Positions 45,246-54,833 of a stretch of 64,000 nt of DNA are shown here, piece after piece. The DNA comes from Escherichia phage vB-Eco-KMB23. The stretch's first letter is position 1. Each line of letters begins with the position of its first letter. A program made the translations under genes and the position numbers. Location of the stretch: sequence record OR525702.1; one strand, given 5' to 3'. The notes under the pieces are model-generated. The model worked only from the letters and a program-made list of their open reading frames with translations. It was not told the origin of the DNA and made no database searches.

Positions 45246-48200
45246 ATGGCCGAGATTAAAAGAAAGTTCAGAGCAGAAGACGGTCTGGACGCAGGTGGCG
45301 ATAAAATAATCAACGTAGCTTTAGCTGATCGTACCGTAGGAACTGACGGTGTTAACGTTGATTACTTAATTCAAGAAAACACAGTTCAACAATATGATCC
45401 AACTCGTGGATATTTAAAAGATTTTGTAATCATTTATGATAACCGCTTTTGGGCTGCTATAAATGATATTCCAAAACCGGCAGGAGCTTTTAATAGCGGG
45501 CGCTGGAGAGCATTACGTACAGACGCAAACTGGATTATGGTTTCATCTGGTTCATATCAATTAAAATCCGGTGAAGCTATTTCGGTTAATACTGCAACTG
45601 GAAATGACATCACGTTTACTTTACCATCTTCTCCAATTGATGGAGATACTATCGTTCTCCAAGATATTGGAGGAAAACCTGGAGTTAACCAAGTTTTAAT
45701 TGTAGCTCCAGTACAAAGTATTGTAAACTTTAGAGGTGAACAAGTACGTTCAGTACTAATGACTCATCCAAAGTCACAGCTAGTTTTAATTTTTAGTAAT
45801 CGTCTGTGGCAAATGTATGTTGCTGATTATAGTAGAGAAGCTATAGTTGTAACACCAGCGAATACTTATCAAGCGCAATCCAACGATTTTATCGTGCGTA
45901 GATTTACTTCTGCCGCACCGATAAATATTAAACTTCCAAGATTTGCTAATCATGGAGATATTATTAATTTCGTCGATTTAGATAAACTAAATCCACTTTA
46001 TCATACAATTGTTACTACATACGATGAAACGACTTCAGTACAAGAAGTTGGAACTCATTCCATTGAAGGCCGTACATCGATTGACGGTTTCTTGATGTTT
46101 GATGATAATGAGAAATTGTGGAGACTGTTTGACGGGGATAGTAAAGCACGTTTACGCATTATAACGACTAATTCTAATATTCGTCCAAACGAAGAAGTTA
46201 TGGTATTTGGTGCGAATAACGGAACAACCCAAACAATTGAGCTTCAGCTTCCTACTGATATTTCTGTTGGTGATACTGTTAAAATTTCCATGAATTACAT
46301 GAGAAAAGGACAAACAGTTAAAATCAAAGCTGCCGGTGAAGATAAAATTGCTTCTTCAGTTCAATTGCTGCAATTCCCAAAACGCTCAGAATATCCGCCT
46401 GAAGCTGAATGGGTTACAGTCCAAGAATTAGTTTTTAATGGTGAAACTAATTATGTTCCAGTTTTACAGCTCGCTTATATTGAAGATTCTGATGGAAAAT
46501 ACTGGGTTGTACAGCAAAATGTTCCAACTGTAGAAAGAGTAGATTCTTTAAATGATTCTACTAGAGCAAGATTAGGCGTAATTGCTTTAGCTACACAAGC
46601 TCAAGCTAATGTCGATTTAGAAAATTCTCCACAAAAAGAATTAGCAATTACTCCAGAAACGTTAGCTAATCGTACTGCTACAGAAACTCGCAGAGGTATT
46701 GCAAGAATAGCAACTACCGCTCAAGTAAATCAGAACACCACATTCTCTTTTGCAGATGACCTTATCATTACTCCTAAAAAGCTGAATGAAAGAACTGCTA
46801 CAGAAACTCGTAGAGGTGTTGCTGAAATTGCTACGCAGCAAGAAACTAATACAGGTACTGATGATACTACAATCATCACTCCTAAAAAGCTTCAAGCTCG
46901 CCAAGGTTCTGAATCATTATCTGGTATTGTAACTTTTGTATCTACTGCAGGTGCTACTCCAGCTTCTAGTCGTGAATTAAATGGTACGAATGTTTATAAT
47001 AAAAACACTAATAATTTAGTTGTTTCACCTAAAGCTTTGGATCAGTATAAAGCTACTCCAACACAGCAAGGTGCAGTAATTTTAGCAGTTGAAAGTGAAG
47101 TAATTGCTGGACAAAGTCAGGAAGGATGGGCAAATGCTGTTGTAACGCCAGAAACGTTACATAAAAAGACATCAACTGATGGAAGAATTGGTTTAATTGA
47201 AATTGCTACACAAAGTGAAGTTAATACAGGAACTGATTATACTCGTGCAGTCACTCCTAAAACTTTAAATGACCGTAGAGCAACTGAAAGTTTAAGTGGT
47301 ATAGCTGAAATTGCTACACAAGTTGAATTCGACGCAGGCGTCGACGATACTCGTATCTCTACACCATTAAAAATTAAAACCAGATTTAATAGTACTGATC
47401 GTACTTCTGTTGTTGCTCTATCTGGATTAGTTGAATCAGGAACTCTCTGGGACCATTATACCCTTAATATTCTTGAAGCAAATGAGACACAGCGTGGTAC
47501 ACTTCGTGTAGCTACACAAGTTGAAGCTGCTGCAGGAACATTAGATAATGTTTTAATAACTCCTAAAAAGCTTTTAGGTACTAAATCTACCGAATCACAA
47601 GAAGGTGTTATTAAAGTTGCAACTCAGTCTGAAACTGTGACTGGAACGTCAGCAAATACTGCTGTATCTCCAAAAAATTTAAAATGGATTGTGCAGAGTG
47701 AACCTACCTGGGCAGCTACTACTGCGATAAGAGGTTTTGTTAAAACTTCATCTGGTTCAATTACATTCGTTGGTAATGATACAGTCGGTTCTACCCAAGA
47801 TTTAGAACTGTATGAGAAAAATAGCTATGCGGTATCACCATATGAATTAAACCGTGTATTAGCAAATTATTTGCCGTTAAAAGCAAAAGCTGCTGATACA
47901 AATTTATTGGATGGTCTAGATTCATCTCAGTTCATTCGTAGGGATATTGCACAGACGGTTAATGGTTCACTAACCTTAACTCAACAAACGAATCTGAGTG
48001 CCCCTCTTGTATCATCTAGTACTGCTACGTTTGGCGGATCAGTTTCGGCAAACAGCACATTAACTATTTCTAATACTGGAACGGCAACTCGTCTGATTTT
48101 TGAGAAAGGACCTCAAACTGGAACTAACCCAGTACAGACGATGACTATCAGAGTTTGGGGAAATCAGTTTGGTGGCGGTTCAGATACAACACGTTCTACT

Positions 48201-49115
48201 GTATTTGAAGTTGGTGATGAAACGTCTAATCACTTTTATTCTCAACGCAATAAAGCTGGGAATATAACGTTTAGTATCAATGGTACTGTAATGCCAATAA
48301 ATGTTAATGCTTCGGGTTCTTTGAATGCGAACGGCGTTGCAACATTTGGTAGTTCAGTTACAGCCAATGGCGAATTCATCAGCAAGTCTGCAAATGCTTT
48401 CAGAGCAATAAATGGCGACTATGGATTCTTTATTCGCAATGATGCTGCTAACACCTATTTTATGCTTACTGCATCGGGTGATCAGACTGGCGGATTTAAT
48501 GGATTACGTCCTTTAGCTATTAATAATGCATCTGGTCAAGTAACTATTGGTGAAAGCTTAATCATTGCCAAAGGTGCTACTATAAATTCAGGTGGTTTAA
48601 CTGTTAACTCGAGAATTCGTTCTCAGGGCACTAAAACCTCTGACTTATATACCCGTGCGCCAACATCTGATACCGTAGGATTCTGGTCAATTGATATTAA
48701 TGATTCAGCTACTTATAACCAGTTCCCAGGTTATTTTAAAATGGTTGAAAAAACTAATGAAGTGACTGGGCTTCCGTACCTAGAACGTGGCGAAGAAGTT
48801 AAATCTCCTGGTACACTGACACAGTTTGGTAACACACTTGATTCGCTTTACCAAGATTGGATTACTTATCCAACGACACCAGAAGCGCGTACCACTCGCT
48901 GGACACGTACATGGCAGAAAACCAAAAACTCTTGGTCAAGTTTTGTTCAGGTATTTGACGGAGGTAACCCTCCTCAACCATCTGATATCGGTGCTTTACC
49001 ATCTGATAATGCTACAATGGGGAATCTTACTATTCGTGATTTCTTACGAATTGGTAATGTTCGCATTATTCCTGACCCAGTGAATAAAACTGTTAAATTT
49101 GAATGGGTTGAATAA
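45246..49115 (+). CDS. 34: long tail fibre proximal subunit gp34 (1289 aa)
   Basis: 1289 aa as in T4; repetitive beta-rich fibre sequence. Confidence 0.96.
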   Translation: MAEIKRKFRAEDGLDAGGDKIINVALADRTVGTDGVNVDYLIQENTVQQYDPTRGYLKDFVIIYDNRFWAAINDIPKPAGAFNSGRWRALRTDANWIMVSSGSYQLKSGEAISVNTATGNDITFTLPSSPIDGDTIVLQDIGGKPGVNQVLIVAPVQSIVNFRGEQVRSVLMTHPKSQLVLIFSNRLWQMYVADYSREAIVVTPANTYQAQSNDFIVRRFTSAAPINIKLPRFANHGDIINFVDLDKLNPLYHTIVTTYDETTSVQEVGTHSIEGRTSIDGFLMFDDNEKLWRLFDGDSKARLRIITTNSNIRPNEEVMVFGANNGTTQTIELQLPTDISVGDTVKISMNYMRKGQTVKIKAAGEDKIASSVQLLQFPKRSEYPPEAEWVTVQELVFNGETNYVPVLQLAYIEDSDGKYWVVQQNVPTVERVDSLNDSTRARLGVIALATQAQANVDLENSPQKELAITPETLANRTATETRRGIARIATTAQVNQNTTFSFADDLIITPKKLNERTATETRRGVAEIATQQETNTGTDDTTIITPKKLQARQGSESLSGIVTFVSTAGATPASSRELNGTNVYNKNTNNLVVSPKALDQYKATPTQQGAVILAVESEVIAGQSQEGWANAVVTPETLHKKTSTDGRIGLIEIATQSEVNTGTDYTRAVTPKTLNDRRATESLSGIAEIATQVEFDAGVDDTRISTPLKIKTRFNSTDRTSVVALSGLVESGTLWDHYTLNILEANETQRGTLRVATQVEAAAGTLDNVLITPKKLLGTKSTESQEGVIKVATQSETVTGTSANTAVSPKNLKWIVQSEPTWAATTAIRGFVKTSSGSITFVGNDTVGSTQDLELYEKNSYAVSPYELNRVLANYLPLKAKAADTNLLDGLDSSQFIRRDIAQTVNGSLTLTQQTNLSAPLVSSSTATFGGSVSANSTLTISNTGTATRLIFEKGPQTGTNPVQTMTIRVWGNQFGGGSDTTRSTVFEVGDETSNHFYSQRNKAGNITFSINGTVMPINVNASGSLNANGVATFGSSVTANGEFISKSANAFRAINGDYGFFIRNDAANTYFMLTASGDQTGGFNGLRPLAINNASGQVTIGESLIIAKGATINSGGLTVNSRIRSQGTKTSDLYTRAPTSDTVGFWSIDINDSATYNQFPGYFKMVEKTNEVTGLPYLERGEEVKSPGTLTQFGNTLDSLYQDWITYPTTPEARTTRWTRTWQKTKNSWSSFVQVFDGGNPPQPSDIGALPSDNATMGNLTIRDFLRIGNVRIIPDPVNKTVKFEWVE

Positions 49116-50975: not shown

Positions 50976-53900
50976 ATGGCTACTTTAAAACAAATACAAT
51001 TTAAAAGAAGCAAAACTGCAGGTCAACGTCCTGCTGCTTCAGTATTAGCCGAAGGTGAATTGGCTATAAACTTAAAAGATAGAACAATTTTTACTAAAGA
51101 CGATTCAGGAAATATCATTGACTTAAGCATTACCGCTGGCGGTAATATCAGTGGTAATATCACTCAAACTGGTGATTATACACAGACTGGAAAATTTAAT
51201 TTAATTGGCCCGCAGATTATAGCAAGTGGTGGATATATTGAGTTTAATTATCGTACTACTGGAAGTGGGGCTTGGTCCGGTCAACACACTGCAAAGGCTC
51301 CAATTTTTGTAGATTTAAGCTCAGCTACTTCCACATCTGAATATAATCCTATAATTAAACAGCGCTTTAAAGATGGAACTTTTTCATTAGGTACTTTAGT
51401 TTCTGAAGGTTCGTTGAAGATTCATTATATTGATGAAACTGGTCAATCTAAATATTGGACATTTGCGCGCTCAGGTAATTTTCAAGTTGATTCTGGTAAT
51501 TTATTAGTATCTGGTGGGTATTTAGTCGCTCAGAGTAATATTGAAACAAGAACAGGTTCTTTGATTGGTCCATCTGTTGTAACTAAAAATATTTCATTTG
51601 ATACGAAAGCGTTTGGACAATACGATTCGCAGTCATTAGTTCAATATGTTTATCCTGGAACTGGTGAAACAAACGGAATTAATTACCTTCGTAAATTCCG
51701 TGCAAAATCTGGTGGTACGATTTATCATGAATTAGCTTCTGCACAAACCGGAAAAAGTGATGAACTGTCTTGGTGGACCGGTAATACAGCCGTTAATAAA
51801 CAAATGGGCCTTCGCAATGATGGGTCTTTAGTGTTGCGACGCTCACTCGCAATTGGTACAATTACAACAGATGAAAACATTAATAATTACGGCTCCACTG
51901 GAGCAATGGGTGAATGCTATATAGTCATTGGAGATGCCGCAACTGGTGTATCATATAAAAGATCTGGTGTATATGATTTAGTTGCTAATGGTCTTTCTAT
52001 CGCGTCTATTACTCCTGACAGTTTCCGTAGTACTCGTAAAGCATTATTTGGACGTTCAGAAGACCAAGGCGGAACATGGATTATGCCTGGAACGAACGCT
52101 GCTTTTTTATCGGTTCAAACACAGGCTGATGAAAACTCTGCTGGAGATGGTCAAACCCACATTGGATATAACTCTGGCGGTAAAATGAACCACTATTTCC
52201 GTGGTAAAGGAAAAACTAATATTAATACTCAAGAAGGCATGGAAGTTAACCCAGGTATTTTGAAATTGGTAACTGGCTCTAATAATGTAATGTTTTATGC
52301 TGATGGCGGTATTACATCTGTTAAGCAGCTTTCAATATATAACGGCATATATTTAGCAGCTAATAATTCTACTGCTGGGCTAACATTCGCTCCAACTACT
52401 ACAATTGATGGCACTAAGCAAATTTTGTGGGAAGGCGGTACTCGTGCTGGTCAGAATAAAAGCTATGTAACTGTTAAAGCATGGGGTAATTCATTTAACG
52501 CATCTGGCGATCGTAATCGTGAAACGGTTTTTGAAGTAGCTGATGGACAAGGATATTATTTTTATTCACAGCGTGTGGCTCCAAGTGGCTCTGAAACTAC
52601 TGGGCCTGTTGTAACCCAGTTCAATGGACAAGTTAATGCTAGAGGAAGTATTATTACTGACGGAAGTTTTAAAGTTAATGGATTAAGCACTTTAGTCGGT
52701 AATGTTACCATGTCTAATGGTTTGTTTGTCCAAGGTGGTTCTTCTATTACTGGACAAGTAAAAATTGGTGGAACTGCTGATGCATTAAGAATTTGGAATG
52801 CCGAATACGGTGCTATTTTCCGTCGCTCAGAAACAGCATTACATATTATCCCGACTCCTAAAGATGCCGGTGAAAGTGGTGGAATAAGTAATCTCCGCCC
52901 ACTTAGTATTAGTCTTAATAATGGTATGGTACAAATGCGCCATTCTGTTACGTTAGGCGATGATGGCGCTGGCGGTAATATGATTACTGTGGACAACGAT
53001 ACCAAACTTGTTGTTGTTACTAGTAATAGTCGCATTTCTCCTAATTACCGTATGCAGGTAGGACAAGCAGCTTATATTGATGCTGAATGTACTGACACAG
53101 TTCGCCCGGCTGGTGCAGGGTCTTTTGCTTCACAAAATAATGAAAACGTTCGTGCTCCATTCTATATGAATATTAATCGTACAGATACAAGTACTTACGT
53201 TCCTATTTTGAAACAACGATATGTCCAAGGAAACAGTTGTTATTCTCTGGGAACTCTAATTAACGGCGGTAACTTCAGAGTTCATTATCATGAAGGCGGC
53301 GATGGCGGTTCGACTGGCGCTATTATAAAGGATTTAGGTTGGGAATTTAACAAAAATGGTGATTTTATATCTCCTAAGCGTGTTTCTGCTGGGGGTTCAG
53401 TTTATTTAGGTACAGACGGCAATATTACAGGTGGTTCTGGCAATTTTGCTAATTTAAACAGTACAATTGAATCACTTAAAACCGATATTGTATCGAGTTA
53501 CCCAATCGGTGCTCCTATTCCATGGCCAACGGATACTCCTCCTGACGGTTACGCTATTATGGAAGGTCAGACTTTTGATAAGTCTGCATACCCAAAATTG
53601 GCTATGGCTTACCCATCTGGCGTAATTCCAGATATGCGCGGGCAAACTATTAAAGGTAAACCAAGTGGTCGAGCTGTATTAAGCGCAGAAGCCGATGGTG
53701 TTAAGGCTCATAGCCATAGTGCATCGGCTTCAAGTACTGACTTGGGTACTAAAACTACGTCGAGTTTTGATTATGGTACTAAGACGACAAGTAGCTTTGA
53801 CTATGGCACTAAGACTAGCAATACCACAGGTAACCACTCTCATACTGTAAGCGGTACTACGAGTTCTGCTGGTGCACACCAACATGCGCGCTCAGGTCCT

Positions 53901-54254
53901 CAGTTACAAGCCGGCATACCCAATAACATATTCTATGACGGATATAATAGTGTAGGTGCAAACGCCAACGCTAAAATCACCGGATCTGTGAGCGGTGCTA
54001 CTGCAGGGTCGAATATAGCCAAAACTTCTTCAGACGGTGCTCATACTCATACTTGGTCTGGTACTACAAGCACTACAGGTAACCATGCTCACACAGTAGG
54101 TATCGGTGCTCATACCCATACTGTAGGTATCGGTGCTCATACCCACACGGTAGCAATTGGCTCGCATGGTCATACTATCACTGTAAATAGTACAGGTAAT
54201 ACAGAAAACACGGTTAAAAACATTGCTTTTAACTATATCGTTCGTTTAGCATAA
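50976..54254 (+). CDS. 37: long tail fibre distal subunit / receptor-binding protein gp37 (1092 aa)
   Basis: T4 gp37-like with C-terminal His-box array ([32 protein letters not shown] x2, GSHGHTITV) and conserved C-terminus [11 protein letters not shown]; longer than T4 gp37 as I recall it. Confidence 0.95.
53745..53820. repeat. 30-bp tandem repeats inside gene 37 ([10 protein letters not shown] units)
   Basis: GGTACTAAAACTACGTCGAGTTTTGATTAT and GGTACTAAGACGACAAGTAGCTTTGACTAT plus a partial third unit; copies differ at synonymous positions. Confidence 0.8.
54096..54149. repeat. 27-bp tandem repeat inside gene 37 (VGIGAHTHT His-box units)
   Basis: GTAGGTATCGGTGCTCATACCCATACT repeated as GTAGGTATCGGTGCTCATACCCACACG. 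Confidence 0.8.
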
Positions 54255-54258
54255 GGAG

Positions 54259-54274
54259 AGGGGCTTCGGCCCCT
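54259..54274 (+). other. stable hairpin between genes 37 and 38
   Basis: AGGGGC-TTCG-GCCCCT with no downstream T-run; likely an RNA structure or attenuator rather than a full terminator. Confidence 0.4.
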
Positions 54275-54281
54275 TCTGAAT

Positions 54282-54833
54282 ATGAAAATATATCATTATT
54301 ATTTTGACACTAAAGAATTTTACAAAGAAGAAAATTACAAACCGGTTAAAGGACTCGGTCTTCCTGCTCATTCAACAATTAAAAAACCTTTAGAACCTAA
54401 AGAAGGATACGCAGTTGTATTTGATGAACGTACTCAAGATTGGATTTATGAAGAAGACCATCGCGGCAAACGAGCATGGACTTTTAATAAAGAAGAAATT
54501 TTTATAAGTGACATTGGAAGCCCGGTTGGTATAACCTTTGATGAGCCCGGCGAATTTGATATATGGACTGATGACGGTTGGAAAGAAGACGAAACATATA
54601 AACGCGTTTTAATTCGCAATAGAAAAATTGAAGAATTATACAAAGAATTCCAAGTTTTAAATAATATGATTGAAGCTTCTGTCGCGAATAAAAAGGAAAA
54701 ATTCTATTATAAAAACCTTAAGCGGTTCTTTGCTCTTTTAGAAAAGCATGAGCATTTAGGTGGTGAATTCCCTTCATGGCCTGAAAAAGAACGGAAACCT
54801 TGGTATAAGCGTTTATTCAAGCATTACGTATAA
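54282..54833 (+). CDS. 38: gp38 tail-fibre assembly chaperone, T4 type (183 aa)
   Basis: 183 aa; sequence matches the T4-type gp38 chaperone (MKIYHYYFDTKEFYKEENYKPVKG...) rather than the T2-type adhesin. Confidence 0.93.
   Translation: MKIYHYYFDTKEFYKEENYKPVKGLGLPAHSTIKKPLEPKEGYAVVFDERTQDWIYEEDHRGKRAWTFNKEEIFISDIGSPVGITFDEPGEFDIWTDDGWKEDETYKRVLIRNRKIEELYKEFQVLNNMIEASVANKKEKFYYKNLKRFFALLEKHEHLGGEFPSWPEKERKPWYKRLFKHYV

Follow-up and report, generated by a model that had tools for sequence, protein, structure and literature searches.

A TuIb-type gp37 tip with a predicted extra needle rung in Escherichia phage vB-Eco-KMB23

The DNA analysed here is a stretch of 64,000 nucleotides (hereafter the window) from Escherichia phage vB-Eco-KMB23 (OR525702.1). 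Its backbone is that of an ordinary Tequatrovirus, with about 97% identity to teqsoen, ESh33 and PhiZZ6 across 24 kb, and the order of the genes around the distal tail fibre gene is the canonical T4 one: gp34 (45246..49115), gp35, gp36, gp37, gp38 (54282..54833) and the holin t, followed by asiA on the opposite strand. Gene 37 (50976..54254, on the + strand like all the features located below) was assigned from its open reading frame and by homology; it codes for the distal subunit of the long tail fibre, which ends in a C-terminal adhesin domain. The protein is 1092 aa long against 1026 aa in T4, and the first-pass annotation, made from the sequence by itself, was thus right both to call it gp37 and to call it larger than its T4 counterpart. 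Over its full length the gene is about 95% identical in nucleotides to gene 37 of teqhad, FelixPlatter, Ozark and others, the best match reaching only about that value. Neither Rfam families nor tRNAs were detected when the window was scanned.

Gene 38 (54282..54833) codes for a protein of 183 aa that is identical to TuIb gp38 at 183 of 183 positions and to T4 gp38, annotated as 'tail fiber assembly', at 182 of 183. No Pfam model matched it, and its assignment as a tail-fibre assembly chaperone rests on the identity to T4 gp38; this agrees with the earlier proposal that the partner of gp37 is a T4-type chaperone and not a T2-type adhesin. The T2/T6 type of fibre, in which gp38 is an adhesin of some 260 aa that caps the processed C-terminus of gp37 (the family with a separate gp38 adhesin is described in PMC3157838), is ruled out here by the 183-aa chaperone together with the adhesin domain that gp37 itself carries. 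The spacer between genes 37 and 38 contains a GGGGC-UUCG-GCCCC hairpin (54260..54273), seen in the sequence and on folding, whose stability does not significantly exceed that of shuffled sequence (z=-1.89).

Alignment with T4 gp37 shows where the 66 additional residues are located. The C-terminal domain accounts for 37 of them and the shaft for a net 29, so that the description of the tip as enlarged holds for the first part of the excess and not for the second. In the C-terminal domain, the gain is made up of 10 residues (the second copy of a 10-aa repeat, see below), 15 and 3 residues in the head, and 9 residues (the second VGIGAHTHT). In the shaft, it comes from a module at about aa 63-200 (51162..51575), from 11 residues inserted near aa 654-664 and from some single-residue indels. 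The module has been swapped: in the alignment it is unrelated to that of T4 and common to FelixPlatter, the identity over two 60-column blocks that span most of it being 13% with T4, 13-23% with the Shigella phage ESh17 and 62-98% with FelixPlatter. In the next alignment block, identity with T4 and ESh17 is 33-38%.

The last 278 residues (aa 815-1092) match chain 2xgf_A, residues 2-242, with E=3.8e-96 (phmmer against PDB); the 2XGF structure corresponds to residues 785-1026 of T4 gp37. Within this part, aa 845-892 (53508..53651) were recognised as a collar domain (Pfam PF07484, E=2.2e-11, 44 bits for a cutoff of 24). In the T4 tip, each chain ascends through the needle, makes the head and then returns to the collar, which results in a six-stranded needle whose axis carries iron coordinated by seven HxH boxes (PMC12609058, PMC6957217); it has been proposed that the number of HxH boxes may scale with needle length (PMC12609058). 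The tip of vB-Eco-KMB23 shares with that of T4 the collar, the HxH needle, the head and a conserved tail of 29 aa that follows the last HxH; the gp38 chaperone is likewise common to both phages. Homology to 2XGF, a collar, HxH boxes on both strands of the needle and the chaperone place the tip, as judged from sequence, in the T4-type gp37 tip family. An AlphaFold2 monomer model of the 278-aa tip, built from an alignment of 31 sequences, had a mean pLDDT of 52.3, a pTM of 0.23 and a needle almost without secondary structure; such a poor model is to be expected, because an obligate intertwined trimer that depends on iron and on a chaperone was modelled as a monomer.

Two short tandem arrays lie in the needle part of the gene, and both Tandem Repeats Finder and the translation confirmed that they are in frame, as had been noted. 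The first, at 53738-53817, has a period of 30 nt (2.7 copies, 74% match). In the protein it appears as [10 protein letters not shown] at aa 924-933 and again at aa 934-943 (53745-53774 and 53775-53804), followed by a partial GTKT at aa 944-947 (53805-53816), the whole set of units covering 53745..53816. The second, at 54090-54153 and with a period of 27 nt (2.4 copies, 89% match), gives VGIGAHTHT at aa 1041-1049 and aa 1050-1058 (54096-54122 and 54123-54149), then a diverged third unit, VAIGSHGHT, at aa 1059-1067 (54150-54176; 54096..54176 for the three). Between the two complete 30-nt units there are 8 differences in 30 nucleotides, all synonymous and including a TCG/AGT serine switch, and between the two VGIGAHTHT units 2 in 27, both of them synonymous. 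Since these differences accumulated without a single amino-acid change, the repeats are old and under purifying selection; they are not fresh slippage products, in accordance with the earlier reading.

The count of seven His-x-His boxes given in the first-pass annotation is that of T4, which has seven in its C-terminal domain and one upstream. Here we found eight in the C-terminal domain (at aa 912, 954, 968, 1023, 1037, 1046, 1055 and 1064) plus one in the shaft (aa 770). The distribution is three on the ascending strand and five on the descending one, against three and four in T4. Box 1 (H912/H914, 53709..53717), which aligns with T4 H883/H885, is at the base of the ascending strand of the needle. 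On the basis of the spacing pattern, boxes 2 and 3 (H954/956 and H968/970, 53835..53885) form an ascending 14-aa module, and boxes 4 and 5 (H1023/1025 and H1037/1039, 54042..54092) a descending one; boxes 6, 7 and 8 belong to the three 9-aa units of the second array. The 10-aa repeat thus follows box 1 and precedes box 2 on the ascending strand; on the descending one, the stretch from box 5 to the last box holds the 9-aa HxH repeat. Written as the distances between successive boxes, with the distance across the head in square brackets, the tip reads 42,14,[55],14,9,9,9 with 8 HxH, against 32,14,[37],14,9,9 with 7 HxH for T4. The T4 protein has one full ascending 10-aa unit and one descending 9-aa HxH unit fewer, which show up in the alignment as gaps of 10 and 9 aa; it is thus one rung shorter. 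The T4 head is, in addition, 18 aa shorter and divergent.

The contacts G921-F970 and H929-G964 reported for T4 (PMC6957217) imply an antiparallel register in which the sum of the paired positions, i+j, is about 1892. If this register is constant along the needle, then the T4 unit at 895-904, [10 protein letters not shown], should lie opposite residues 988-997, which are inside [18 protein letters not shown]. If the two repeats of vB-Eco-KMB23 make up one rung between them, then their copy numbers must co-vary. We examined this in natural sequences by measuring the HxH spacing after the collar motif in 120 homologues from a database clustered at 90%, in 80 IMG/VR loci and in 147 representatives at 50% identity. 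Among the 199 unique complete tips, a first gap of 32, 41/42, 52, 62 or 73 aa goes with 2, 3, 4, 5 or 6 trailing 9-aa HxH gaps, respectively; 198 of them obey this match, and there is one real exception. The 14-aa modules are likewise equal in number on the two strands, i.e. none on either side in 90 tips, one on each in 108 and two on each in a single tip. When each distinct combination of architecture and head length was counted once, 56 of 58 obeyed both rules, a match reached in none of 100,000 permutations.

The variety of spacings is illustrated by 52,14,[41],14,9,9,9,9, by 62,14,[41],14,9x5, by 73,[59],9x6 and by 42,14,14,[43],14,14,9,9,9, as well as by tips without a 14-aa module such as 32,[34],9,9 and 42,[35],9,9,9; the window, TuIb and FelixPlatter all have 42,14,[55],14,9,9,9. 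One apparent second exception, P0214, was set aside: what it has lost is a single ascending HxH, and the numbers of its units agree with the rule. The real exception, L005, is an IMG/VR contig of 78% nucleotide identity which has two ascending units and from which exactly one 27-nt descending unit is missing; it may be an evolutionary intermediate or code for a defective fibre. Part of the co-variation could come from co-inheritance of the whole tip as a cassette. The 42/9,9,9 architecture, on the other hand, occurs with many sequences whose heads range from 33 to 58 aa, and the finding of the same unit counts with so many heads argues for a structural constraint over simple co-inheritance.

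From these data, we consider it likely that a strict grammar governs the needles of gp37 and Stf proteins: each ascending 10-aa GTKxxSxFDY unit would go with a descending 9-aa VxIGxHxHT unit, the 14-aa modules would pair in the same manner, and natural needles would vary by whole rungs, their iron sites numbering from about 5 up to 10 or more. We did not find this matched-rung rule stated in the accessible literature. It is a modest addition that follows naturally from two points already published, the hairpin topology and the suggestion that HxH number may scale with needle length. If the two repeats are halves of a rung, then they are scaffold and not a binding surface, eight irons per trimer are expected and specificity should reside in the head.

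As to the identity of the tip, the top megablast match to 53500-54254 was X55191.1 (99.5% nucleotide identity), entitled 'Bacteriophage TuIb 37 gene for receptor-recognizing protein 37 (partial cds), 38 gene, and t gene'. It is the sequence behind the 1990 work of Montag, Hashemolhosseini and Henning on a "receptor-recognizing area". This record covers only the 3' end of gene 37, and the comparison with TuIb is one of tips, not of shafts. Over the C-terminal fragment, 266 of 267 residues and 800 of 804 nucleotides are the same, as are the repeats, the eight HxH boxes and the head; the sole amino-acid difference is the conservative L977 here for I977 in TuIb, and the whole 1556-bp record departs from the window at 5 nucleotides. 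At least 95% nucleotide identity in the tip was found for 29 phage records. ESh17 (ON528727) has a gp37 of 1064 aa whose last 300 aa or so are identical to ours, joined to a T4-like N-terminal shaft module, a combination with a TuIb-type tip that illustrates the usual mosaicism of gene 37. The gp37 of FelixPlatter (Bas40 of the BASEL collection, MZ501065) is of the same length class (1091 aa) and has the shaft module of the window; its gene is about 95% identical overall, and its tip differs at five residues (D942N, L977I, I1001F, S1004T and S1006N), four of them in the head.

Taken together, these observations make it very probable that the tip is a T4-type collar-needle-head domain in its TuIb form, with one extra rung, eight predicted irons and a bigger head that binds OmpC. 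According to this model, three chains would rise from the collar, form the head and descend again, giving a six-stranded needle that iron ions hold together; every chain would contribute one HxH box to the binding of each ion. The extra rung relative to T4 would consist of one ascending 10-aa unit and one descending 9-aa HxH unit, bringing the predicted iron sites from seven in T4 to eight. The head, 18 aa larger and assisted in its folding by the T4-type gp38, would bind OmpC as primary receptor. The pairing of the two repeats in space and the iron at the eighth site are what we infer from the sequence; the matched-rung rule explains why the two repeats occur jointly and predicts that eighth site.

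The repeats lie among the His boxes of the adhesin domain, which is also what would be expected if they were host-range-expanding duplications that by themselves alter receptor specificity. Duplications of this kind in T4 gene 37 were reportedly selected in the laboratory by Tetart and colleagues (1996). We regard this origin as very unlikely. A recent duplication of the Tetart type, which would have left identical or near-identical DNA copies, is ruled out by the synonymous divergence described above (8/30 and 2/27, with zero amino-acid change) and by an arrangement that is fixed in many phages. Moreover, the same unit counts are found across many head sequences and lengths, and the ascending and descending units come as a matched pair, which is expected of a structural rung and not of a binding surface.

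Under the preferred reading, a TuIb-type tip with a scaffold of matched rungs, specificity should reside in the head and not in the repeats. The head lies between boxes 3 and 4, at aa 971-1022 (53886..54041), and was delimited from the alignments. In the work of Henning, TuIb reportedly received its name from its use of the outer-membrane protein Ib, i.e. OmpC. The residues critical for receptor binding in T4 map to the stretch equivalent to aa 971-1022 (PMC6957217), and single substitutions in the head change the receptor use of T4 (PMC5221442). Infection by FelixPlatter depends on ompC, as verified by complementation (PMC8594841), and a secondary source lists the receptor of TuIb as OmpC(/LamB) (PMC9659904). 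By analogy with these two phages, vB-Eco-KMB23 would use OmpC. The proposal that specificity lies in gp37 itself thus stands in so far as the match to 2XGF and the literature place receptor binding in the gp37 C-terminal domain for this class of fibres; the repeats and His boxes to which it had drawn attention are needle scaffold. According to the 'Ferrojan horse' idea, the iron of tail fibres acts as a bait for siderophore receptors (PMC11705849); nothing in the present data bears on it, and the receptor of this allele is a porin.

The first-pass annotation had also presented the tip as the likely host-range determinant. As a new determinant it does not hold: the tip is, as far as its sequence tells, the TuIb allele, known since 1990, present in dozens of GenBank phages and essentially identical to that of a characterised gp37 whose receptor was assigned experimentally in a near-identical phage. 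The one to five residues at which the heads differ could nevertheless matter for receptor use. A new specificity variant, in which L977, or the combination of the tip with a different shaft module, would shift the receptor or the host range away from those of TuIb and FelixPlatter, seems to us slightly less plausible still than a host-range duplication. It would fit with the one residue that separates the tip from TuIb and the five, four of them in the head, that separate it from FelixPlatter, with the effect of single head substitutions in T4 (PMC5221442), and with a full-length gene only about 95% identical to its best match. However, the ESh17 tip is identical over its last 300 aa or so, the L/I difference at 977 is conservative and there is no known contact between the shaft module and the receptor. 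The practical value of the assignment to the TuIb form is that OmpC can be predicted with confidence as the receptor of vB-Eco-KMB23 from a catalogued allele.

That the repeats could be a sequencing or assembly artefact, or the product of very recent replication slippage, is almost certainly to be discarded: short tandem repeats are classic trouble spots for both, and L005 does differ by exactly one 27-nt unit, but the identical arrangement is present in the independent TuIb record of 1990 and in the 29 phage records with tips at least 95% identical, which excludes the sequencing error evoked initially, the copies can be told apart by their synonymous differences and the frame is intact up to the conserved C-terminus.

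The finding is otherwise an ordinary one, the matched-rung rule being a refinement of a known architecture. If real, the rule would tell which in-frame indels a gp37 or Stf needle tolerates and would provide a simple recipe for setting the length of fibre tips and for designing chimeric tail fibres. The same collar/needle/head domain, which obeys the same grammar and has between 2 and 6 nine-aa units, is found in the Stf-like side-tail-fibre tips of lambdoid prophages of Enterobacteriaceae, which differ from the tip described here by their unrelated shafts, their siphovirus or prophage contexts and their other heads.

The N-terminal shaft module of gp37, the distal subunit of the long tail fibre, lies at window positions 51162-51575 (aa ~63-200) and is shared with the gp37 of the BASEL phage FelixPlatter. 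The shaft modules of T4 and of Shigella phage ESh17, in contrast, are unrelated to it, with 13-23% identity in two 60-column blocks that cover most of the module. In ESh17, a T4-like shaft module is joined to a C-terminal tip of the TuIb type that is identical to the one in the window; this pairing indicates that the shaft and tip modules of gp37 have recombined.

Natural needles were found to spread widely in length, as illustrated by the homologous tip proteins P0177, P0217, P0094 and P0058. Up to 5-6 of the nine-residue HxH units are present per needle (P0177, P0217), and in P0058 the 14-aa modules occur as a doubled pair. Within the family, such variation would correspond to ~5 to 10 or more predicted iron sites in each trimer.

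The matched-unit rule, by which each 10-aa unit added to the ascending strand comes with one 9-aa HxH unit on the descending strand, was broken by only one tip out of 199, that of an IMG/VR locus (L005:1501-2307, IMGVR_UViG_3300030021_000020). Its ascending side carries two GTKT(T/S)SSFDY units, but it is short of the window's set of 27-nt VGIGAHTHT units by exactly one. This tip may represent an intermediate stage in evolution or a mismatch of register that the needle tolerates; it may also be a copy that is defective or has slipped.

Several E. coli database proteins with the collar/needle tip (P0030, P0035, P0039, P0055, P0056 and P0064) bear the name 'phage terminase large subunit family protein' or 'phage tail tape measure protein', and carry extra Pfam domains (PF05876, PF09718) that agree with those names. 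These names are probably mis-annotations or the result of chimeric gene calls in prophage regions.

Downstream of gp37, a spacer of 27 nt separates the stop codon of gene 37 from the start codon of gene 38. It contains a GC-rich hairpin capped by a UUCG tetraloop (GGGGC-UUCG-GCCCC, 54260-54273), immediately preceded by a Shine-Dalgarno-like GGAG. The stability of the hairpin was not in significant excess over that of shuffled sequences (z=-1.89).

T4 nrdB contains a group I intron. Across the whole window no Rfam family reached its gathering score, so that the part of the nrd/ligase region lying in it gave no sign of a group I intron; there were no tRNAs either. The best genome matches to window 20000-44000 were split into 2-5 aligned pieces; these span ~24-28 kb of record against a query of 24 kb, suggesting insertions in some relatives, e.g. 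homing-endonuclease genes, that are missing from the window.
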